A stretch of DNA of 41,570 bases from IMG/VR virus record IMGVR_UViG_3300045988_048710. The stretch is one strand, 5' to 3'. The position numbers were made by a program, and so were the translations under genes. Below are positions 4,836 to 23,786 of the stretch, piece after piece. The stretch is from a virus. Within the stretch, counting starts at the first letter, position 1, and the number at the start of each line of letters is the position of its first letter. Below the pieces are notes generated by a model, which did no database searches, had not been told where the DNA came from, and was given only the letters and a program-made list of their open reading frames with translations.

Positions 4836-4860
4836 TAAGCTGACACATATGATATAGAAT
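4832..4860 (+). promoter_or_regulatory. Candidate repressor (lysogenic) promoter
   Basis: TTGATA (4832-4837), 17-nt spacer, TAGAAT (4855-4860), just upstream of the GGAGG RBS and ATG 4881. Confidence 0.5.
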
Positions 4861-4880
4861 TGTGTATGGAGGAAGAAAAA

Positions 4881-5201
4881 ATGAATATCTATGAAAGAAT
4901 ACGTCACCGACGTGAACAGCTAGATATGTCTCAAGAAGAACTGGCTAGTAAAATCGGATATAAGGATAGAACTGCCGTTTCAAAAATGGAAAATGGACAA
5001 CGGCAAATCAAACAAAGCATGATTGTAAAGCTTGCGGCTGCTCTCGACACCACCCCATCCTATCTAATGGGCTGGGATAAGGAAGATGACGATGCAACGC
5101 TAAGTGACAGACTGCTGACAAGGTACAGGGAGCTCGACGATCTGGATCAGGCGATGGTACGGAGGCTTCTGAAGTGTGATGAAGATTTCAATAAAGTATA
5201 G
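4881..5201 (+). CDS. CI-like XRE-family repressor
   Basis: ATG 4881 after GGAGG. MNIYERIRHRREQLDMSQEELASKIGYKDRTAVSKMENGQRQ is a canonical XRE HTH. Divergent from the cro-like gene. Confidence 0.8.
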   Translation: MNIYERIRHRREQLDMSQEELASKIGYKDRTAVSKMENGQRQIKQSMIVKLAAALDTTPSYLMGWDKEDDDATLSDRLLTRYRELDDLDQAMVRRLLKCDEDFNKV

Positions 5202-6591: not shown

Positions 6592-7614
6592 ATGAAAGTA
6601 ACGAAATTACCAAGCGGAAATTATAGATGTCGCGTATACGTAGGGAAGGACGCTTCCGGGAAAAAGAGGTGGAAGTCGATCACCGGACCGGACAAGAAGA
6701 GGGTAGTGCTGGAAGCCAGTAAATTTTCCGTAGAGCGGGACGCAAGCGCTCCCGTCGTTGATACTGCATCCTTCAAGCACGCAGCCGACACGTTTTTGGG
6801 CTCCCACGAGTCTGTGCTGAGCCCTTCGACCTATCGAGCATATAAATGCTTTCTGAGGATCTACGAGAGCAAATTGCCCCTATTCTGCGAGAAATCCATA
6901 TATACCATTTCTACTGCGGATCTGCAAATGGTCGTGGACTTCTTCGTGCGGCAAGGCCTGAAGCCGAAAACCATCCGGAATTACTACGGTTTCGTGTCTG
7001 CGGTCCTTGTCAATGCCGGGATCAATGTCCGGCCCCCAAGACTTCCGCAGAAGGAACGCCCGGAAATTTACATACCGGATGAGGCTACCGTGCGGAAGCT
7101 CCTCCAGCTTGTAGAAGGAACAGAACTGGAGATCCCCGTCCTGCTGGCAGCGTTCGGCCCGCTCCGTCGTGGAGAAATCTGTGCCTTGTCGATGGATGAC
7201 ATCAAAGACGGAATATGCCATGTTCATCACGATCTCGCGCAGAACGCAGACGGAGAGTGGGTGGTTAAAGCCCCAAAGACCTACTCTTCCGACAGATACA
7301 TTGAGCTTCCTGCCTTCGTGGTAGATACAATCAATCGGAACGGTTCCATCACAAGTCTTACTCCGGATCAGATTTCGTGGAAGTTTTCCGACGTCTTGGA
7401 GCAGAACGGTCTTCCACATTTCCGGTTCCACTCTCTCAGGCATTTCTGCATCAGCTACCTGCACAGCATCGGTATCCCGGATGTGTATATCATGCAGAGA
7501 TCCGGGCACTCTACGGCGACCGTACTCCGGGCCGTCTACACGCATACTCTGCAGGACCGTTCAAAGACAGAGACGGAAAAAATCCTCGGGAAGTTTTCCT
7601 CTTTCAGAGAGTAA
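6592..7614 (+). CDS. int: Tyrosine integrase (phage integrase family)
   Basis: N-terminal arm-binding-type MKVTKLPSGNYRCRVYVGKDASGKKRW. Catalytic LRRGEI, FRFHSLRHF and GHSTATVLRAVYTH give the R..HxxR..Y signature. Confidence 0.9.
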   Translation: MKVTKLPSGNYRCRVYVGKDASGKKRWKSITGPDKKRVVLEASKFSVERDASAPVVDTASFKHAADTFLGSHESVLSPSTYRAYKCFLRIYESKLPLFCEKSIYTISTADLQMVVDFFVRQGLKPKTIRNYYGFVSAVLVNAGINVRPPRLPQKERPEIYIPDEATVRKLLQLVEGTELEIPVLLAAFGPLRRGEICALSMDDIKDGICHVHHDLAQNADGEWVVKAPKTYSSDRYIELPAFVVDTINRNGSITSLTPDQISWKFSDVLEQNGLPHFRFHSLRHFCISYLHSIGIPDVYIMQRSGHSTATVLRAVYTHTLQDRSKTETEKILGKFSSFRE

Positions 7615-7640
7615 TTTCGTGTCAACTTTTCGTGTCAACT
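7615..7640 (+). repeat. attP arm-type repeat pair (TTTCGTGTCAACT x2)
   Basis: Tandem 13-bp units at 7615-7627 and 7628-7640, immediately after the int stop. Confidence 0.6.
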
Positions 7641-7702
7641 CTGCCGCTAAAACGGTGCTTTTTTCGCTATAATCGTAGCGTTTTCGATACGGCCTGAGCA
7701 CT

Positions 7703-7748
7703 GAAAACCCCCGTAAATTCAAGGTTTTCTTGAACTTACGGGGTTTTC
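7703..7748. terminator. Long imperfect hairpin between int and the attP core
   Basis: gaaaacccccgtaaattcaag / cttgaacttacggggttttc form a stem of about 19 bp with one mismatch and one bulge. An A-run and a T-run lie at the stem ends. Confidence 0.5.
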
Positions 7749-7755
7749 TCATTCA

Positions 7756-7780
7756 CTGGGCTAGTAGGATTCGAACCTCA
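7756..7780 (-). other. attP core: 3' end fragment of a tRNA gene (T-loop plus acceptor 3' strand)
   Basis: The - strand reads GAGGTTCGAATCCTACTAGCCCAG. It has the GGTTCGAATCC T-loop signature, then TAGCCCA-G, reminiscent of Firmicutes tRNA-Gln ends (from memory). No D or anticodon arm lies upstream, so it is not a full tRNA. Confidence 0.6.
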
Positions 7781-7822
7781 TTGGTTTACATTAAAAACGT
7801 TGAAAGAAAAGGATTTTTCACA

Positions 7823-7848
7823 CTCCGTGTCAACTCTCCGTGTCAACT
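7823..7848 (+). repeat. attP arm-type repeat pair (CTCCGTGTCAACT x2)
   Basis: Tandem 13-bp units at 7823-7835 and 7836-7848, with the same CGTGTCAACT core and orientation as 7615-7640. Confidence 0.6.
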
Positions 7849-7851
7849 CCA

Positions 7852-8022
7852 TCAGAAGTGCTTCGCTTGCCGGATCTCCTCCATGACTTCATTATACTTC
7901 TCTGGATGTAGAAATTTGATTTCGTCCATGAGGGATCCGACGATCTCCAGAAACTCCGGAAGATCAATATCGGAGCATGCTGATATAAATTCGTTGCTTG
8001 ACTTAACCTCCGGAAGCTTCAT
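7852..8022 (-). CDS. Hypothetical small protein (56 aa), last gene of the accessory operon
   Basis: ATG 8022 after AAGGAG, one nt after the upstream stop. MKLPEVKSSNEFISACSDIDLPEF. Confidence 0.5.
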   Translation of the reverse strand: MKLPEVKSSNEFISACSDIDLPEFLEIVGSLMDEIKFLHPEKYNEVMEEIRQAKHF

Positions 8023-8023
8023 T

Positions 8024-8332
8024 CTACATCTCCTTATAGATTGACTGATAAGTCTTTGCGGCTGCAATTGCTTCAATCTGCTTCTTCTCTGCGTAGCTGC
8101 AGATCTCCTGCATAGCTTCACTGAAGCATCCCTCTTCTTTCTTCTTCTCAATCACCTTGCTAAGAGCTTCGTGCAGCCTTGTAGCGTGTGTTCCTTCCTC
8201 TGCACTGATGGTTGCAAGGGTCGATGCGACTCCCGGCATCTTCTCCTTCAGTGCTGCCGCCCACTTCGCATAGTGCTTCATATCCTCGATCTCTTCGTCG
8301 ATCTGGTCGAGGAATGCATTGATCTGATCCAT
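8024..8332 (-). CDS. Hypothetical helical protein (102 aa), possibly a ferritin-like four-helix bundle
   Basis: GGAGGG RBS. EEIEDMKHYAKWA and AEEGTHATRLHEAL (ExxH) suggest a ferritin-like half-site, but this is weak. Confidence 0.55.
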   Translation of the reverse strand: MDQINAFLDQIDEEIEDMKHYAKWAAALKEKMPGVASTLATISAEEGTHATRLHEALSKVIEKKKEEGCFSEAMQEICSYAEKKQIEAIAAAKTYQSIYKEM

Positions 8333-8341
8333 ATGCCCTCC

Positions 8342-8791
8342 TTATGCCAGTTTGACGATGCATCCGGATACAAGGTTTACCGTTCCGGCTGCTGCGCCCT
8401 CTGCGCCTATGAGGAGCTGGATCCGCGTAGGTTCCTGACAGCAGCACGTAGCCAGGTATCGGACCGTCCCTGTTTCCATGACGGAATCCCCGACTGCAAG
8501 GGTCTGCGTCCTCTTTGTTTCCTGCAGAGGAATGCCGTTCTTCGCCATCTGGAGCGATACATCTCCTGCCGCTGTCGCATTGATGTTGACGGCGAATTCG
8601 ATCTGGTAGAGACCGCCGTGCTCAATCTCGATTGCAGCGGGCAGGACCTTGACGGAGGCTCCGGTGTCGGTGACTTCCGATCCAAGCAGGTTGAGCGCTG
8701 CCACAGCGCTTCCGATAGTCTGCGCAGCAGTGTTGTAGAACTGCGCAGAGGATTTATAGTGTGGGTTTTTAAGACAGTTACAATTTGCCAT
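8342..8791 (-). CDS. C1q/TNF-like (BclA C-terminal domain-like) protein with CCC motif
   Basis: The GGLYQIEFAVNINATAAGDVSLQMAKNGIPL...TVNLVSGCIVKLA pattern resembles the BclA C-terminal jelly-roll. N-terminal MANCNCLKN and internal ATCCCQEP are Cys clusters. Confidence 0.45.
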   Translation of the reverse strand: MANCNCLKNPHYKSSAQFYNTAAQTIGSAVAALNLLGSEVTDTGASVKVLPAAIEIEHGGLYQIEFAVNINATAAGDVSLQMAKNGIPLQETKRTQTLAVGDSVMETGTVRYLATCCCQEPTRIQLLIGAEGAAAGTVNLVSGCIVKLA

Positions 8792-8845
8792 TGTGTATTA
8801 CCTCGTATGAAAGACCCCGCCGCCATACAGCGGCAGGGCGTACAG

Positions 8846-9451
8846 TTAGTTGTAGTTTCCGCAGCACGGAGACGGGTTGTACGGATACACTCCGTATGCG
8901 TAGGGATTCGTTCTCGGAATCCCGCACATTGCCGCCTGAAGCTGAAGCTGATTGATCTGGTTCTGCATGTCAGCCATGCGGTTTCCAGCAATCGCATCGA
9001 GCACCTTCTGCACCTGTGCAGTGGTGGTCTGATTGATCGAAGCAGTGTTGATAGCACCCTCGTACTTCACACCATCAATTGCTCTTTGTGTATCGCAGCA
9101 ACACTTCTGCATGTCCGTGAAGCCAGCATTAACCGCTGTTTCAAGATCTCTGATCTCTCCAAGCGTGTTATAGTTGGCATCCTTGACAGCTCCGGTCGTG
9201 TCATACACGCCCTGACGGACTGCATCCGTGATCTCGTTGTTCTGTCTTTCGAGCGCCGCAAAATCGGTCGATCTCTGGACATCTCCAACGGTTGCGCCAC
9301 GATCTCCGGTTTTCCCGCCGAAAAGACCGCCACCGCCACCGATTGCGAGCAGGATCAGCAGTGCAAAGATCCACATACCGCCGCCGCAACCACCGGCACC
9401 TTCATTTCCCATAACGGCTGCCATATCAGCCGGGGACATTGTTCCATCCAT
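8846..9451 (-). CDS. Membrane-anchored Cys-rich protein (201 aa)
   Basis: GGAGG RBS. TM segment GMWIFALLILLAIGGGGGLFGG, then a Q/N/T-rich helical region with KCCCDTQ and a C-terminal YPYNPSPCCGNYN. Confidence 0.6.
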   Translation of the reverse strand: MDGTMSPADMAAVMGNEGAGGCGGGMWIFALLILLAIGGGGGLFGGKTGDRGATVGDVQRSTDFAALERQNNEITDAVRQGVYDTTGAVKDANYNTLGEIRDLETAVNAGFTDMQKCCCDTQRAIDGVKYEGAINTASINQTTTAQVQKVLDAIAGNRMADMQNQINQLQLQAAMCGIPRTNPYAYGVYPYNPSPCCGNYN

Positions 9452-9518
9452 AATTTACCTCCTTATGTCATGGAATCCGGGCCGATAAGACCGTTTATAA
9501 GATAGAAGTCTGCGCAGA

Positions 9519-9767
9519 CTATCTAAACAATTTACTCAGGGTTTGTAGGATACCGCCCCTGTTTTCTTTTAAAGGTGTGAGAATTATGTCAGGGTCAATT
9601 CCCATCTCGCGGCATTTGTTGTAAAATGCTTTCTGAGGGCCGTATAGTTTGGCTTCTCTCAGTGCCTCCTGCAGTATGCCGGGGTTATTCTGGATCTGTG
9701 ATATCAGCTCTTCCGGTGTTTTCTCCGGATTTCTGGGCTTCCTGTCTGGAAATAGCGTGCTGGACAT
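9519..9767 (-). CDS. Hypothetical protein (82 aa)
   Basis: ATG 9767 lies 9 nt after AAGGAGGG. It overlaps the 3' end of the upstream ORF by 83 nt in another frame. Confidence 0.5.
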   Translation of the reverse strand: MSSTLFPDRKPRNPEKTPEELISQIQNNPGILQEALREAKLYGPQKAFYNKCREMGIDPDIILTPLKENRGGILQTLSKLFR

Positions 9768-10062
9768 CTGCAAGTTCCCTCCTTAAGGCGTCAAACTCAT
9801 TCCTCGTAATCGTGTCGCTGGGAGTCTCTACTTTTACAAGATCGAAGGTGTATCGGATCTTCGGTCTTCCGGTTATCTCTCCGACATTTGAGACAATGTA
9901 TACACGGTCCTGCTCATCATCAAATACCGCCGCTGTCGTTTCTGGCGGAAGATTGACCTGCTCCGCACCGCTTGCACCGGTGCATCGAAGCAACTCATTC
10001 TGCTGTCGCATCGCCCCGTAGTACGGATACATCGGATACCCATTCATCATATTTCTTGACAT
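9685..10062 (-). CDS. Hypothetical protein (125 aa), first gene of the accessory operon
   Basis: ATG 10062 after GGGAGGTGAG. MSRNMMNGYPMYPYYGAMRQQNE, with a Tyr/Pro/Met-rich N-terminus. Confidence 0.6.
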   Translation of the reverse strand: MSRNMMNGYPMYPYYGAMRQQNELLRCTGASGAEQVNLPPETTAAVFDDEQDRVYIVSNVGEITGRPKIRYTFDLVKVETPSDTITRNEFDALRRELADVQHAISRQEAQKSGENTGRADITDPE

Positions 10063-10087
10063 AATTCTCACCTCCCAAAAATAATTT

Positions 10088-10150
10088 TATGCATTAAAAT
10101 TGCATACGTCTTTTGTGGTTTTTTCTTAAAAACACCAAATCTTTTTGGTG
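10088..10150. promoter_or_regulatory. Divergent control region with two perfect inverted repeats
   Basis: TATGCA-N7-TGCATA (10088-10106) and CACCAAA-N4-TTTGGTG (10133-10150), between the - strand operon start and the + strand XRE gene. Confidence 0.45.
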
Positions 10151-10179
10151 CTCAACCAAAATAGGAGGAAAAAATAGGA

Positions 10180-10755
10180 ATGAGTAGGCGAATATCTGAT
10201 AATCTTGTATCTGTTTTGCACGAGTCGCGTGTTTTGTCTGGGACCACGCAGAAAACTTTAGCTGATTCTTTGCATAAATCAGTCGCGACGATTCAGTACT
10301 GGGAGACCGGTACAGTGCAGCCGCCGTTCTGGGCTGTCGTGGAATGGATCGAGACATGCGGATATAATCCTCTTCGCTTCTACTTAAATTACCTGTATCC
10401 GGACAAGTTCAAGCATATCTGGAGCGACGATCCGCAGAAACTTCGCAGTGCCATAGCAGAGTATTATCTTTCTGCTGCTCCGGATTCTGAAGTTAAGAAG
10501 ATGGCATACAGCATCTTCGGGCCAACCGGCTCCTCATGGCAGGGACAGGTGGATGAAATCTGCGCCGGGAATCAGTTGCCGATCAGTGCCCGGATTGATG
10601 TTGCAGAGGTCATATACTCGAAGTATTGCATGGCAAGAGATACCGGGACCATTCTGCATCCCGATATGGTGCAGCCTGATATGGACAATCTGAGATCCTC
10701 GATTGATGCATGTAAGAAAGCAGTGATAGATGGCCACACGGAATATTGCGCATAA
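10180..10755 (+). CDS. XRE-family HTH regulator with an uncharacterised C-terminal domain (191 aa)
   Basis: LSGTTQKTLADSLHKSVATIQYWETGTVQP is an HTH. It is one of only two + strand coding blocks, the other being the lysogeny module. Divergent from the accessory operon. Confidence 0.7.
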   Translation: MSRRISDNLVSVLHESRVLSGTTQKTLADSLHKSVATIQYWETGTVQPPFWAVVEWIETCGYNPLRFYLNYLYPDKFKHIWSDDPQKLRSAIAEYYLSAAPDSEVKKMAYSIFGPTGSSWQGQVDEICAGNQLPISARIDVAEVIYSKYCMARDTGTILHPDMVQPDMDNLRSSIDACKKAVIDGHTEYCA

Positions 10756-10758
10756 AAA

Positions 10759-10814
10759 GAGCGCCCCGGAGGAATGAGGGCGCTCATAAACCGCAGCATG
10801 TGCTGCGCGGTTTT
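10759..10814. terminator. Convergent terminator pair (late operon end / XRE gene end)
   Basis: gagcgccc-N11-gggcgctc with an A-run upstream gives a T-run on the - strand. ccgcagca-tg-tgctgcgcgg followed by tttt serves the + strand. Confidence 0.6.
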
Positions 10815-10927
10815 CAGTTGTGATTGTGCCATCCGGTTATCGCCGCGATGGCACATATCGCTCCAAGAATTCCGATGCCAATTGTTGTTACGGCAAGGAG
10901 CGATATCGTACAGATGATTTCTGACAT
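10814..10927 (-). CDS. 37-aa hydrophobic peptide after the endolysin, not in the ORF track
   Basis: My translation is MSEIICTISLLAVTTIGIGILGAICAIAAITGWHNHN. The ATG overlaps the endolysin stop by 1 nt. Confidence 0.4.
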   Translation of the reverse strand: MSEIICTISLLAVTTIGIGILGAICAIAAITGWHNHN

Positions 10928-11625
10928 CATTTCTTTATGTAATCGAGGCACACCCAACCGCCAATATTGGTAAGCTTGCCCCAGCCGCCTTTCTCAGCTT
11001 CAATGCTCACGACCATGCCAGCAGGGAGCCGGAAGTCCTGATCTCCGATCTTCATCACAGGATTCTCTGTCCCTGCTCCGGTCCTTACATTCAGATAGCT
11101 GCTGACCTTGACGATCCCTGCGTACTGCTTCACTTTTCGTGCCTCTTCCTTTCCAGATCCTTTGTACCGGAGGGCCTTCTGCCATCCTTTTGAGTAGACA
11201 TAGTAGCTCCGGACGCAAATCTCACGCCCCGTCTGGTCTCCGGTCTTGCCTCCGGTTGCACGTCCTCTCTCGTTGATGCTTGCGTGGACGATCTGACCAT
11301 TTCCGATGTACATTGCGACGTGGTACTGTTCGTTCAGCAGGATGTCGCCTCTGCAGAGCCCGGCCCCTGTTGCAAAGTCCACAGTGGATGTGACATCCCG
11401 GAAGCCGTTCTTCAGCATCGCCTGTCGCATGTTCCCCGTATAGGTGGCCCCTGCCTTAACCAGTGGCACTCCTGCCTGATCCCATGCTGTAATCAGAAAC
11501 GAGGAACAGTCATAATCGGGCCCCCATCTCTTTGTCTGGTCGTATCCATGAGAAGGATCCTTCGCGATCTTGAGGGCCCACTGTATAGCTTTATCTATTG
11601 TCATTGCTGCCATTGTTGCCGTCAT
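10927..11625 (-). CDS. Endolysin: NlpC/P60-type peptidase domain plus C-terminal SH3-like binding domain
   Basis: GPDYDCSSFLITAW (Cys) and QYHVAMYIGNGQIVHAS (His) are NlpC/P60-like. The C-terminal GIVKVSSYLNVRTGAGTENPV...GGWGKL...GWV is SH3_3-like. ATG 11625 after AGAGGGAAAGG. Confidence 0.8.
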   Translation of the reverse strand: MTATMAAMTIDKAIQWALKIAKDPSHGYDQTKRWGPDYDCSSFLITAWDQAGVPLVKAGATYTGNMRQAMLKNGFRDVTSTVDFATGAGLCRGDILLNEQYHVAMYIGNGQIVHASINERGRATGGKTGDQTGREICVRSYYVYSKGWQKALRYKGSGKEEARKVKQYAGIVKVSSYLNVRTGAGTENPVMKIGDQDFRLPAGMVVSIEAEKGGWGKLTNIGGWVCLDYIKK

Positions 11626-11941
11626 ATGCCTTTCCCTCTGCAATATGCATTCCCTTTACTGCAGCCTCGATTAGTACGCGGATCTGTTCCTGTGTTACCG
11701 AAATATTATTTTTAGCGCACCAATCAGCAATGAGCTCTATAGCCTTGGCTCTTCGTTCATCTCCGGTCTTCTGCCAGAAGAGCTGCTGCACAGCATATAC
11801 TGCCTGCCTGACATAATTCTCAAGCTGCTCCGTCTTCGTAGCTCCGACCTTCTGCCGGATCCAAGGGAGCAGATAGCCGCAAAGCAGAAACCCTGCAAGC
11901 ATCAGCGCCAGCCTGACAATTTCCATTACCATCTCATCCAT
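11591..11941 (-). CDS. Holin, LL-H-like
   Basis: An N-terminal TM (IVRLALMLAGFLLCGYLLPWI) is followed by AVYAVQQLF...GDERRAKAIELI...ISVTQEQIRVLIEAAV, typical of LL-H family holins. Directly upstream of the endolysin. Confidence 0.6.
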   Translation of the reverse strand: MDEMVMEIVRLALMLAGFLLCGYLLPWIRQKVGATKTEQLENYVRQAVYAVQQLFWQKTGDERRAKAIELIADWCAKNNISVTQEQIRVLIEAAVKGMHIAEGKAYDGNNGSNDNR

Positions 11942-22100: not shown

Positions 22101-23786
22101 TATAAGTTTTCTTGCCCGCGCATTGTGGTTCTTAAAGATATCCCAGAACTTATCTGCAGACGCAATCTCAGTTGCAACTTCAATGCCTGCGCTGGTGAGT
22201 GCGTTTGTCATAGCCTTCTCCTGCGTCTGATTCTTGTCTGCAATGTTCTGACTGATAGAGGAAGCGTATGCATTCGCTCCGAATGGAGCAAGGGAAAGAG
22301 CACTTCTTCCAATTCTCGCCGCAACCCCTGATCCGCTTACAGCTCCACCAAGTGCTCCGGTTTCCCAGGATTCGGCAGAAGACATTCCGGCCGCATACAA
22401 GCCTCCAAGCAGCTTACTCTTCTGGTTGATGGCATTTTGTGTCGTAGACTGGTAATCCGTAGTTGCATTCGATGCTCCGAAGGCCACAGAGTTTACGTTC
22501 ATCGGGGACTTCTTATCCCGATATCCGCCGCCGTAATACTTTGCGGTCTCTCCGATTGCTCCGATTCCTGCATACGGGTTCAGGGTAAGCGCAGTTGCTG
22601 TGTTCTTGATCCCGCCGAGAATATTCTTTGCCGTGCTGTCCTGATGCACATTGTTGTAAGCTTCCTGCTTCTGCTGCTGCCTGTTGCTGTAATCATCGAG
22701 TTCCTTCCCATAGTAGGAGAGGTCATCAATATCATTATCGCTCAGACCGTATTTCTTCTTGACTGACTCACGGAAGGAATCTGCATCCTTCTGCGCCTGT
22801 TCTCCGAAATCGGTCTGAATATTGCTGGCAGACTCCGCAAGACCGGAGCTCCTCTGCATCTTCGCCTCAGATACCATCGAGTTGTACCTGCTGATATCTG
22901 TTCTGAGAGAGTCGCTGTTGTTCTTCCCTTTGGTCTTGAACACGTTTTCTGCATATTCGAGCTCCTGAGAATATGTCCGCTTTCCACTCTTGCTCGCCTC
23001 TTCCGCAGCCTCCTTGTCAGCCTGCTCCTGATCGTTCATCCCTTGCCACGTGCTGTACGTAGCATCATTAACGCCATATTTTTTCTTGAACTGGTCAGCA
23101 AGATTCTGCGCTTCCTGCTGGCTCTGCTTTGTCTTTCCTGTGATGCCGTTCAGGATTCCACCCGTGCTCTGTGTTTCCCCGATCTGAGAGAGCTCCTTCT
23201 TCTGCTCATCAGTGATTCCGGAATATGAATCCTGTGCAGCGAGAGCCTGCTGAGCACGATACGCCTTATACCCTGCCATCAGGTTCTTATATGCCTCATC
23301 GTCCACAGAATTTTCCTTCTTGAACTGGTTTGCCATATAATCCGATGTTGTATAGCCGCTGTATCGATCTCCTCCAGACGGAGTCATAGACTGTGCTGTG
23401 TAAATGTTCTCAAGTGCCGACTTTTGTGCAGTGCTTGCATTGCGATACATGTTGGATGCATCGATATCGCCCTGAGTGAATCCGTTCTGCAGGAGCCGGT
23501 TATTCCGCTGTTCCTCCATTTCTCTCTGATACTGCAGATATTTCTGCTGTGCCTGCAGGTTTTTCATGGCCTCACGACCAGCAATTGCAGCGGCATCTGG
23601 ACCGTTCTGCGCAATATCGGCATATCTCTGATTTACCTGTGCAGCACGAATAGACTGCTCCTCCTCAGAAGGAACAGCCCACGGCTCATAAGTAAAGCTT
23701 TCGCCTTCTTTTTTTCTGCGCTTTTCAATGTCGTCCACCGCCGAATTGATTGCTTTAAATGCTCTTGTTGCTGCCGAATATGCCAT
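13194..23786 (-). CDS. Giant 3,530-aa mosaic virion-associated (polyvalent / ejected) protein
   Basis: Single uninterrupted 10,593-nt ORF in the structural gene block. It contains repeated KKKYG(V/L)xD motifs, Gly/Ala-rich hydrophobic segments, an AT-rich cassette, a YHGT...YFT ART-like signature and a long C-terminal region. Confidence 0.8.
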   Translation of the reverse strand: MAYSAATRAFKAINSAVDDIEKRRKKEGESFTYEPWAVPSEEEQSIRAAQVNQRYADIAQNGPDAAAIAGREAMKNLQAQQKYLQYQREMEEQRNNRLLQNGFTQGDIDASNMYRNASTAQKSALENIYTAQSMTPSGGDRYSGYTTSDYMANQFKKENSVDDEAYKNLMAGYKAYRAQQALAAQDSYSGITDEQKKELSQIGETQSTGGILNGITGKTKQSQQEAQNLADQFKKKYGVNDATYSTWQGMNDQEQADKEAAEEASKSGKRTYSQELEYAENVFKTKGKNNSDSLRTDISRYNSMVSEAKMQRSSGLAESASNIQTDFGEQAQKDADSFRESVKKKYGLSDNDIDDLSYYGKELDDYSNRQQQKQEAYNNVHQDSTAKNILGGIKNTATALTLNPYAGIGAIGETAKYYGGGYRDKKSPMNVNSVAFGASNATTDYQSTTQNAINQKSKLLGGLYAAGMSSAESWETGALGGAVSGSGVAARIGRSALSLAPFGANAYASSISQNIADKNQTQEKAMTNALTSAGIEVATEIASADKFWDIFKNHNARARKLIVDYLVRAGIEGSEEVVGDIADNFMDAVNNGKNSDYNQSVRDYMMQGMSKDEAKKQSTKDQISEAARDFAVAALSGAMGAGIATASGYANDAYNSKTMFDGYTKEDYAQWAEGLDTDPTHYKNASTAQSAEMAKSLAEKMAQEDNATPRQKRELYEYYQDMQNTEMEAAAESEEKENRKDKIEGIKNKVGSFFGRNEAAEGQQAAEHTNTVESSDTQKTAMVEPQNVPEEHRTQSTDIEPNDAYAKMAAAQNGEELRNAYQEAVHSTNKDTREHADSDLQIVSGMLQKRGISEEEIESAKISTEDAYAAGYSGQEISENVPAAVKIAYNDGQKRAIEDRARQTLEARDSVKRTAAKQITDGARTIIEANYKDGMNASAYNDVVSSAINAGRTGMSYENYLKKAGSSVSIVGEDLAKKAYAAGLQVSVNDAVKEVARSMSEKTGVKTFGTGTFTDARSNTSEAFSGASVMQAVAKMTGLNVVLTDQNFREGENGYYKSGNSTIYINSERAENAASTLFHEVGEFASVWNQKEYAGVVSDIMKTSQDVLGTRTFNNIRQKYVNAYLGEEGKTDADVDKEMANDLIYQFLGNEKGMNKLMDQIDQNHGYKEAKSIKQKLADWVGHMVESIKNFLSDLNPNSYQRKMAEANLQNYEELQDAIVKSIANAEKSYSEAKAQSQQDVATDESAKRKSIEVLPDTINDDIEDNIRNFGDMKPVIDVPNNAFERGEKKLSEQVKEYFLENSNNGIVYGNVIGDVDIVAGIKSDIAHGVGRMKAMAFYAVPETIKKGVIVDYQKNRKQRGYDSLLLAAPIRIQNEAGNFENAVEMVAINRSNTDVQKFYFHEAFIINEDESLFKNGRPNRSLPVNDSSSSVYSIARRLIKGNGEGNSVNVDSDTKRMSKQIQEVQDEIADTKEKRDLTGDEKIEKTEDFIAVHNLTMDQLMKDINMGGFPSPSIAIIRSAMQHTRYGDVSVIFNRDTIDPERSKANKVYGGDAWTPTFPGIEYDVNEDKYYSVMHSVDDAMKGKVPEYLRAEAKRFNTPGMNSTAEKGGVDAVVEKAKDNYGMKAAYLASKGETIEDQVHQKEVRKYDDEKANRFDKMEEAIAPVEDEFLKDRSVLSARDMLQKYGGQIQQAYEAYAETVPEDQKKRWTGRVKRANEKAFFAHNIIDDITNAIDYYNNGNESHTENERDTAAIEKQIDSKVDPEGYDAWLRETYDGLIRDEGIYNGKDPFTASGTRKSFRQMHYAVTLENIVRAMNEAGAKAVGTFGGISAVREEAVKDFSSVAEMHQNEGMLRTMNQDEYRNMEGEYINQIRQISHRIARSGQNSLIQDDNAADAILDAVRTRKTAAGIEKALKSYGMNVYEGVGNDILNLMHKISEMPTEYFEAKPQRAVGLDEIAMVVAPDTITKEQTRTLNENRIPLQTYEAGNEDARHQVIEDLQDVRFSRPVQDSEGRNLSEGQQEFFKDSKLKDEYGRLLVMYHGTPQGGFTVFKPDISYFTANRDYAEEYARASSGNSRVNYTHDPEHKVYEVYLNAKKPFDTRDPKVRKVWEQEFFGKYSRTPLTDRGLLDWTDGYDIWDFIDDNDLDYDAVLLDEGSVPNGNGGTRWRGISYTVRDKNQIKNVDNKTPTDDSDIRRDIGIDDYVTDQELWSDYYDTKKSLIEVLRSGNEILKHSDIDKTAVRRIAREIKEQYHSNIDVNELSENLAKVFRYAQGQNYIDYDDLATVISEVASPVIDGSVTKVGAEEFKQFKNALQGVTYNLDSKQEAEVVSAFGSWGNFRKAIPGVKFTRDGSGVSLDGVWSTLVQETGYVLDMDTSSNDMPLALVDAYNSMKPEYQNAFGEDATQAAQDVAMEIVARYYQYSAGQEKLKLKAKQKQELLDQARRMAASNAEYRKKIKQEYQKRYEAELSKVKQSGGRSEPVSKQVAKLRARNARTVASIREEQRRKDELRRLRTPVKNIMDMLTSPTDKKHVPAFVQTPVLQLAAAFDFVPQTVRETADGKFSIRILESRDINADGSYSYKWRTIRADSREDAIAQYKKAMDENGLGSAENKSWQERLWAVQNLYQQDESDDWFERSELKQGLDKELGEKLGKILRDNQGMLSIAQLSSSELRTLNEVVRNVLHAVNQINRMYSKPSQHVSDIAHMVMDRTTSGVKGRREHFKPVATLVDTLTLDHAVAETYFHGIFGGKETDPITKTLYRAEDQKSRDIHQAQDYMADVCDRLATEKEMESWMNETKNYYGLDLTTTQIMSLYELSKRPDAQQHKIGGFVADESNREKVSGQRIPVHLTNEQIKEITDTLTPQQKQMADAMQYYLAHQCAEQGNETCMQLYGYEKFVDEHYFPMTTDKNTIATRDSNVTQGAINAIKNSGFTKDITPEADNPLVLRDIFMVYVDHVAQMATYHAWAAPLQDLIRFFNYNEKAYVEREDGQKFAFRNSVKDAIDYYYGKKGQEYFVKLISSINDREKSSFVGGNFYDMLTGHAKTAATLGNGRVIIQQPTAIFRAGEMISYEYLNAGIVGKYRKEAAELRDRTSDIFWLKNQGNIDGYITQSLVSTITGVKTTREKILDFAGKPASKADEITWAAIYRAVYAEQVDKLGEGKIGTKEFEDAVNDRYSDIVRRTQVYDSVITRSQFMRSPDTKNRMMSAFMAEPVKTYNMILRDMIDISQAEDERQVKKAKAHLVRVTAPVLLITHVINAAAMSFADAFRSAGDPDDEDKNFLRRFMDAMGFGNWLDEDASFGDKLKEFLNGNLVDNMDLLSNIPMVAQYWDATKEGVKSVLGESTYSSDSDLSMSGVKNFFKAVKAIVNPSEKMTTYGKVAALTRAFSDLSGYPLYAAQRDVVAIYNTLLGRTIEQLPVLQKTTKYTPKRQAKLDVYTAALESGGDYKKAVEDAVAQGNDYKAISSGISDTYKNTYLALKETNPNEAIKMKNRLVTLYVYLSDKAGTNKDKTTSEKTKYYSDNIDKWK

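Follow-up and report, generated by a model that had tools for sequence, protein, structure and literature searches.

A candidate autonomous accessory operon conserved across temperate phages of gut Clostridia, with a possible role at the host envelope

The lysin–att morons, among them lambda bor and lom, HK97 gp15 and the Staphylococcus aureus immune-evasion cluster, are accessory loci of one or few genes that occupy the prophage end between the lysis genes and the phage attachment site (attP) and are confined to related phages. Other described systems parallel individual proteins: the BclA exosporium glycoprotein (Pfam PF18573; PDB 1WCK, 2Z5W and 3TWI) has a C-terminal jelly-roll domain, TNF-superfamily ligands and C1q-family proteins present a trimeric jelly-roll head on a membrane anchor or stalk, the P22/Sf6-type tail needle is a coiled-coil trimer that in Sf6 bears a TNF-like knob, and EncFtn and similar ferritin-like di-iron proteins are two-helix-like chains of ~100 amino acids with a ferroxidase half-site. 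Here we analyse positions 7,852–10,755 of IMG/VR virus record IMGVR_UViG_3300045988_048710, a temperate phage genome of 41,570 nucleotides (the window), where a minus-strand operon of six genes, g1 to g6, faces a plus-strand XRE-type regulator gene between the endolysin and integrase genes. The cassette belongs to none of BclA, the TNF/C1q proteins, EncFtn or the lysin–att morons; the likeness is one of fold, of layout, of half-site, and of position and autonomy, respectively. No paper that we found describes the gene set, in agreement with a first-pass annotation of the window, made by a model from the bare sequence, which could not match it to a described system.

We read the locus as an autonomous accessory operon conserved across temperate phages of gut Clostridia and favour a role at the host envelope, with a probability of about 0.4. 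All seven genes lie where the first-pass annotation had placed them: g1 (9685–10062; 125 aa), g2 (9519–9767; 82 aa), g3 (8846–9451; 201 aa), g4 (8342–8791; 149 aa), g5 (8024–8332; 102 aa) and g6 (7852–8022; 56 aa) on the minus strand, and the XRE gene (10180–10755; 191 aa) on the plus strand. Strong ribosome-binding sites, which had been attributed to all six operon genes, precede five of them (GGGAGG, AAGGAGGG, AAGGAGG, AAGGAGGG and AAGGAG); the site of g4 is a weaker GAGG.

We compared about 110 loci (21 from genomes, 80 from viral contigs and others by exact look-up; numbered with the prefix L), taking gene order from iterative searches over all open reading frames (ORFs) of the fetched loci. 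The order g1–g2–g3–g4 recurred, followed by either a DUF7841 protein (58 ORFs) or an unrelated g5-like protein (28 ORFs) in the last position. The conserved unit predicted by this neighbourhood survey is g1 to g4 plus a swappable last gene, in place of the six-gene set first proposed; beyond close relatives of the window phage, g6 was found only in L031 and L022, which are more divergent, and it weakly matches phrog_17454. That about 110 independent loci repeat the g1–g5 homologues in one order exceeds what chance would give, and both order and sequence are conserved, the latter down to 15–50% identity. In all loci the cassette forms the end of the late-gene strand, where it follows late or lysis genes and usually lies between terminators. 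Its downstream neighbours vary and include a convergent tyrosine integrase, a large serine recombinase (L027 and L040), host genes and, once, a D5-type primase (L096).

Titles of metagenome-assembled genomes name Oscillospiraceae, Oscillibacter, Faecalibacterium, Lachnospiraceae and other Clostridia as hosts, and a few bins assigned to Bacteroidota and Succinivibrio appear to be binning noise. Of 50,697 deposited phage records, only one, an unannotated 6.7-kb fragment, carried g3, the hallmark protein of the cassette, and no cultured phage matched the cassette. That fragment (GenBank MT837517) was considered as a small phage or satellite and rejected: it is a piece of a linear scaffold, without annotation, in which the cassette precedes an integrase as usual. 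The endolysin, used as a query, returned only three close relatives, all of which carry the cassette. Two loci, L031 and L032 (IMG/VR UViG_3300045988_059305 and _053778), are mosaic: g3 is 98–99% identical to that of the window, whereas the other products are diverged (XRE 54–55%, g1 54–55%, g2 39%, g4 71–72%, g5 51% and g6 43%), which points to recent recombination within the cassette. We also observed g3 in large, apparently AT-rich phage contigs (L069, L075, L090, L093 and L101). In the two that were inspected, L069 and L093, a g4-like ORF follows g3 and short ORFs that may be g1-like and g2-like precede it; an in-frame stop splits g3 in L093 and could reflect stop-codon recoding or decay.

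Several predicted elements mark the cassette as a separate transcription unit. After the late operon, where the first-pass annotation had noted a convergent terminator pair, two hairpins fold at 10759–10813 (−30.5 and −34.6 kcal/mol; z = −3.6 and −3.2), with a U-run after one on the minus strand and after the other on the plus strand. Because the hairpins fold well and have U-runs on both strands, the pair is predicted to be able to stop both the late/lysis operon (minus strand) and the XRE gene (plus strand). At the other end, a strong bidirectional terminator after g6 and inside attP (7709–7743; 15-bp core stem, z = −7.1) is predicted to end both the operon and the convergent integrase gene. 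A GC-rich minus-strand hairpin between g3 and g4 (8814–8839; 11-bp stem, −22 kcal/mol, z = −2.3) could serve as an attenuator or stabilise the mRNA.

The divergent control region (10063–10179) measures 117 bp from the g1 ATG at 10062, and the 108 bp reported at first is obtained only by counting from an upstream GTG at 10071. The two inverted repeats reported with it are present and have perfect arms: IR-A (10133–10150; CACCAAA-N4-TTTGGTG) and IR-B (10088–10106; TATGCA-N7-TGCATA), both read directly from the sequence, as a repeat finder gave looser versions only. Two −10 boxes overlap in this region, namely the g1 box TAAAAT (10084–10089, minus strand) and that of a near-consensus plus-strand XRE promoter, TTGACA-18-AATAAT, which extends from 10056, inside g1, to 10085. 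IR-B overlaps the g1 box and begins just past the XRE box.

Relatives share this organization. We applied a strict scan for terminator-like hairpins to 61 distinct g1 upstream regions of relatives and to control segments, and found hairpins of any strength upstream of g1 in 49% (strong, 39%) and after the last cassette gene in 64% (strong, 53%), against 17% (strong, 5%) of the controls. A TAnnnT −10 box, often with a TG extension, lies 26–34 nt upstream of the g1 start in 46 of the 61. The enrichment of terminators and the set distance of the −10 box bear out the earlier suggestion of a separate transcription unit with its own regulator, and the predicted promoter and flanking terminators give the cassette the autonomy of a moron. 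The lysin–att morons likewise have their own promoter and flanking terminators and the same prophage-end position; in contrast to them, this cassette comprises five or six genes and a dedicated regulator, persists in phages of great diversity with different types of recombinase, and encodes no product related to a known conversion or exclusion protein. A sigma-K-type promoter (AC-N16-CATAnnnTA), partially matched by eye upstream of g1 in the window, was dropped because relatives show TAnnnT boxes with TG extensions. L046, L019, L063, L106 and others carry lineage-specific short direct repeats past the upstream terminator but ahead of the −10 box (for example, GGGCAG in four copies and GAAATACAG and ATAAGTAGCCGAT in two copies each); these are candidate activator sites or binding sites for a small helix–turn–helix (HTH) protein.

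The XRE protein matches HTH_3 (24.1 bits; Pfam cutoff, 23), and its profile retrieved HTH domains only from the PDB (HigA at 1.5e-6, with XRE and HipB structures weaker). Its C-terminal domain of ~120 aa has no known relative: the protein gave no match beyond the HTH domain, including to the S24 peptidase domain of LexA/CI-type self-cleaving repressors. Full-length relatives lie divergent to the cassette in L015, L029 and L031–35, and adjoin the integrase in L079–L088, the position where a CI-type repressor would sit. In L031 and L032 the diverged regulator is accompanied by inverted repeats of different sequence; that regulator and repeats change together is as expected of paired operators and repressors, and the control region of the XRE gene thus appears to contain putative palindromic operators. 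About 46 loci have a small HTH gene (~70–80 aa) just upstream of the cassette, whose product gave weak matches of sigma-70 region 4, LuxR and GerE type and also of SigH type. In the two loci inspected, L001 and L005, a terminator separates this gene from g1, and in L005, which was checked in detail, the gene begins 7 nt after the holin gene.

The attP region (7618–7849) contains an arm-type direct repeat, CGTGTCAACT, twice at 7618–7641 and twice at 7826–7849, and a tRNA T-loop-like sequence, GGTTCGAATCC, inside its core (7767–7777). A tRNA gene at attP was rejected, as ARAGORN finds none in the window or at an integrated junction and the T-loop-like sequence is a fragment only. Integrated copies of this phage part from the window right after …CCTACTAGCCCAG, at ~7756, near which the core ends. 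In three of them (L116, L120 and L122), the att core comes after g6, and beyond it lie host genes encoding patatin, AraC and UxuA, which makes the cassette the extreme end of the prophage. L120 and L122 are intact, and a trend towards decay in integrated copies was rejected, with stop codons in one of the three. In L116 (12200–12500), the host flank ~150 nt past the att core keeps a 23-nt copy of the integrase-side arm repeat, GTGACACGAAAAGTTGACACGAA, which may be a relic of an earlier integration.

The proteins themselves fit the descriptions first given of them. The hallmark protein g3 has an acidic N-terminal tail, a single Gly-flanked hydrophobic or transmembrane (TM) segment (residues ~26–43; mean Kyte–Doolittle hydropathy of 1.8 over 19 residues), a helix of ~120 residues and a Tyr/Pro/Cys-rich C-terminal tail. 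A CCC motif in mid-helix, one of its Cys clusters, is nearly invariant, and the membrane-proximal part is the most conserved. The family comprises 2828 clusters at 90% identity and 1102 at 50%, nearly all of ~200 aa; the clusters are almost all metagenomic, many from the human gut, and none is functionally named. Searches matched g3 to phrog_16490, of unknown function, and to no relative in the PDB or BFVD; its model is one long helix (55–176) of low confidence (pLDDT 61), with which a fold search gave nothing. Lys and Arg residues are biased to the C-terminal side of the TM segment, which modestly supports a cytoplasmic location of the C-terminal part. One protein of the representative library, P0378 (387 aa), joins a tape-measure fragment (22–296) to the C-terminal half of g3 and could be a true fusion or an assembly chimera.

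The g4 product is predicted to be a C1q/TNF-like jelly roll with Cys clusters. It scores 23.6 bits (E = 5e-5) against the Pfam family BclA_C (PF18573), below the cutoff of 38, as does its L001 homologue with 28 bits. When 20 homologues were combined in a profile, positions 17–120 aligned with structures of the BclA C-terminal domain (8.8e-6 to 2.5e-5); the profile also matched cerebellin C1q (5.7e-7, an E-value that a triple fusion inflates). In these loci g4 homologues are always stand-alone ORFs of 132–192 aa (longest-ORF calls), never part of a larger protein; no g4-like domain was found inside the tail-fibre proteins of the same loci, and no collagen-like stalk N-terminal to g4 or its homologues. 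Thus, g4 and its homologues align with the jelly-roll domain of BclA, but g4 is a free-standing protein of 134–169 aa, lacks the collagen-like stalk and the exosporium-targeting N-terminus, and is phage-encoded beside a membrane-anchored helical protein; we know of no Cys clusters in BclA like those of g4. Together, g3 and g4 follow the same overall logic as TNF-superfamily and C1q-family proteins, that is, anchor, extended stalk and head, with a sequence link that consists of a generic C1q fold signal only. They differ in that anchor/stalk and head are separate polypeptides, that the head has no visible signal peptide and that the charge bias of g3 would place the stalk in the cytoplasm.

The two first genes encode g1, with a disordered N-terminus rich in Tyr and Pro and also in Met, Gln and Asn, a small beta domain, a helix of ~30 residues and a disordered tail, and the small helical protein g2. 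An AlphaFold2 model of g1 (pLDDT 70.5) places the strands within residues 25–74 and the helix at 87–117. Profile searches gathered 180 g1 homologues and matched phrog_21718, of unknown function; neither sequence nor fold searches found a relative in the PDB, where XRCC4-like head-plus-stalk shapes reached E = 0.1 only and were set aside, and the fold matches in BFVD were exclusively proteins of uncultivated phages, mostly uncharacterised. The g2 gene and the 3′ end of g1 share 83 nt (9685–9767) in different frames, and overlaps of 38–100 nt recur in distant relatives; as a separate ribosome-binding site precedes g2, the arrangement resembles translational coupling more than frameshifting. Several gene callers overlook g2. 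Its C-terminal motif, FYxxCxxxG(V/I)DPxxIL, is kept in 19 lineages, and the protein weakly resembles STI1-DP and XPC-binding domains, with no relative among solved structures in a PDB sequence search.

The g5 product passes the Pfam Rubrerythrin threshold by a small margin (23.7 bits; cutoff, 22.8). Residues E14, Y21, E46 and H49 are invariant in 11 homologues and have the spacing of an E…Y…ExxH ferroxidase half-site, and profile matches to BfrB (2e-4) and symerythrin (9e-4) aligned with ferritin helices A and B. The 102-aa chain has a single ExxH motif and so does not form a four-helix bundle with two half-sites; a complete di-iron site would need a dimer. Database names of its relatives are 'rubrerythrin' or 'encapsulated ferritin', the latter given to a 102-aa member of the same 90%-identity cluster. 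EncFtn is similar in length, two-helix-like build and half-site spacing, but g5 is far below the NCBIfam cutoffs (TIGR04535, 18.3 bits against 125; EncB, 17 against 90) and is an optional last gene, replaced by the unrelated DUF7841 in most phages; no encapsulin-type shell gene was found within the cassette and no encapsulin-type targeting peptide was seen on g5. We also considered g5 and g6 as a split DUF7841 gene (102 + 56 = 158 aa) and rejected this at a profile–profile probability of 0.6%, with g5 being ferritin-like. DUF7841 itself matched no solved structure (PqqC at E = 0.27 only) and is not mentioned in the literature that we found.

Searches of g1–g6 against Pfam, PHROGs and PADLOC-DB 2.0 matched no tail, lysis or defence family, so that the refuting homology to tail-fibre or lysis proteins did not appear and the first-pass statement that no product resembles a standard phage function stands. 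No cassette product had an annotated match to a structural or lysis family of PHROGs or Pfam, the closest being g4 against a minor tail family at E = 0.053, and the PADLOC-DB 2.0 defence models gave nothing better than E = 1e-3, in each case to generic HTH or helical models. Known defence systems were rejected as the identity of the cassette, with no match in PADLOC. N-terminal signal peptides were not seen on g1, g2, g4, g5 or g6 when the translations were read by eye, with no predictor run.

On the reading that we favour, transcription of the operon would run leftward from a sigma-A-type promoter of its own within the 117-bp divergent region, with the terminator pair insulating it from the lysis operon and the attP terminator ending it. 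The XRE protein would bind both inverted repeats and repress the operon and its own gene, since IR-B overlaps one −10 box, that of g1, and follows closely on the other, that of the XRE gene, and repression would hold until its C-terminal domain responds to a signal. In most relatives, the small sigma-region-4/LuxR-like protein encoded just upstream would take the regulatory role, probably as an activator. Tethered to the cytoplasmic membrane by its N-terminal helix, g3 would form a long coiled-coil stalk on which g4, C1q/TNF-like and probably trimeric, would dock, perhaps via the Cys clusters of both; g1 and g2 would be adaptors that help assembly, and g5 would bind iron at a dimer interface. 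Such a complex, neither part of the virion nor a lysis gene product, would serve the phage at the host envelope, either by blocking competing phages or by remodelling the envelope late in infection. We favour this role because the cassette crosses very different phage types, g3 is strongly constrained and its partners have no visible signal peptide. That these proteins form a new class of phage system, with a membrane-tethered trimeric g3 stalk, a free g4 head, a prion-like g1 adaptor, a helical g2, a redox or iron accessory and a dedicated regulator, through which many lineages of gut Clostridia phages would act on the host envelope or on rival phages by a route unlike that of any described system of exclusion, lysis or conversion, is a more doubtful proposition that we put forward tentatively.

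Several observations weigh against an envelope role. The topology of g3 rests on a modest charge bias that weakens in distant homologues, where Lys and Arg after the TM segment outnumber those before it in 49% only; the helix model is the low-confidence one described above, and the g3–g4 complex and its trimeric state are guesses. One integrated copy, L116 (= L121), has in-frame stops in XRE and g4. A late or virion function would also fit the late-gene direction of the cassette, the small HTH gene that abuts the holin gene in L005, and the presence of the cassette in contigs of 81–141 kb with no integrase nearby. Furthermore, the gradient of variability, with a conserved N-terminal part of g3 and more variable g4 and g1, is the pattern of a phage fibre.

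Some of the same observations bear on the idea of lysogenic-conversion or defence cargo, which the first-pass annotation had considered typical of a position next to attP with a dedicated regulator. The comparison did not bear this out: the cassette always runs in the late-gene direction, the HTH gene abuts the holin in L005, the large contigs have no nearby integrase and relatives of the XRE protein sit beside the integrase elsewhere. For these reasons, a lytic-cycle function appears as plausible as a lysogen-expressed one.

An unlikely alternative is that the cassette is a very-late structural module in which g3, as stalk, and g4, as tip, form a virion fibre or decoration with g1 and g2, its timing set by the small HTH or XRE protein. 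It draws on the constant place of the cassette on the late strand, directly after tail or lysis genes, on the HTH gene 7 nt past the holin in L005 and on the conservation of membrane-proximal g3 relative to g4 and g1. In the large contigs (81–141 kb, with dUTPase and NrdG genes), g3 and the g4-like ORF follow tail-fibre-like repeat proteins, including in those of 134–141 kb, and P0378, the fusion of a tape-measure fragment with part of g3, would point the same way, although as a single case it may have arisen by chimeric assembly. Knobs of C1q/TNF-like fold sit at the tips of phage fibres and needles, such as the Sf6 needle knob and PRD1 P5. The window phage has a P22-like portal, and g3 and g4 would resemble a coiled-coil needle with a jelly-roll knob. 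However, there is no sequence or fold match to the P22/Sf6 needle, g3 has a TM-like segment, the late operon does not include these genes and the cassette is also found in phages that UniProt labels sipho- or myoviruses. More generally, terminators set the cassette apart from the late operon, the window regulator looks like a repressor, the hydrophobic segment of g3 is genuine by its hydropathy (1.8 over 19 residues) and no structural PHROG was matched beyond the minor tail hit of g4 (E = 0.053). The same cassette also stands beside very different late genes, with giant polyvalent or collagen-domain proteins just upstream, in relatives labelled myo-, sipho- and podoviruses by UniProt.

Considerably less probable is a spore-surface conversion function, whereby the cassette would be expressed in sporulating lysogens, add an exosporium-like layer and alter spore properties. 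The resemblance of g4 to the BclA C-terminal domain suggests it, as do the Cys clusters and Tyr/Pro-rich tails in g1, g3 and g4, the ferritin/rubrerythrin-like g5, the weak GerE- and SigH-type matches of the small HTH protein and the Clostridia named as hosts. Yet the proteins have no collagen-like region and match no spore-coat or exosporium family in Pfam or NCBIfam, and the TAnnnT boxes with TG extension are of sigma-A type, unlike those of sigma-E or sigma-K. The cassette also occurs in large phage contigs and in contigs binned to Faecalibacterium, for which, to our knowledge, sporulation has not been reported.

Very improbable, in our assessment, is an accessory role in lysis or release, with g3 as a holin-like or antiholin membrane protein and the other products released through the lysis lesion. 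T4 holin T combines a TM segment with a large soluble domain, a layout similar to the one Gly-rich TM segment and ~155-aa soluble domain of g3; the cassette adjoins holin and endolysin genes and the partner proteins have no visible N-terminal signal peptide. Against this, the window already has a complete holin (of the Phage_holin_6_1 family in relatives) and endolysin, no lysis family was matched, the L001 cassette comes after a giant tail-region protein, away from any lysis genes, and the C1q-like and ferritin-like proteins would be left unexplained. Finally, a chance ORF set or a decaying remnant without function, to which the stops in XRE and g4 of L116 and the frequent skipping of g2 by gene callers might point, has a negligible probability and is refuted by conservation of order and sequence over about 110 loci, the invariant functional residues of g3 and g5, a ribosome-binding site at every gene and the two other, intact integrated copies.

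Around the cassette, the window has the genes of a temperate phage. The late region encodes terminase, P22-like portal, capsid, tail and polyvalent proteins on the minus strand, followed by holin-like ORFs and an NlpC/P60-ELLD endolysin (10927–11643). A single ORF of 3530 aa (13194–23786, minus strand) encodes a giant polyvalent protein with a PBECR5 nuclease domain, here in a phage with a P22-like portal; its relatives additionally carry ART-PolyVal and PBECR3 domains. Between the endolysin and the terminator pair lies a 47-aa ORF with a hydrophobic core (10814–10957, minus strand) that may encode a small lysis-associated membrane protein. On the other side of the cassette is a plus-strand tyrosine integrase gene (6592–7614), with which a 106–108-aa HTH_3 gene shares an operon in relatives. 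The divergent early-gene switch has a second, short XRE-type gene (4860–5201, plus strand), which probably encodes the main lysogeny repressor.

The presence of the cassette in phages that differ in lineage, recombinase type and genome size suggests strong selection for it in phages of the Oscillospiraceae, Lachnospiraceae and related bacteria, which are numerous in the human gut and difficult to work with. With few, clearly delimited genes and clear regulators, the set lends itself to direct testing. A large share of the dark matter of the gut virome would gain an annotation once its role is resolved, and a new way in which phages act at the Gram-positive envelope could come to light.

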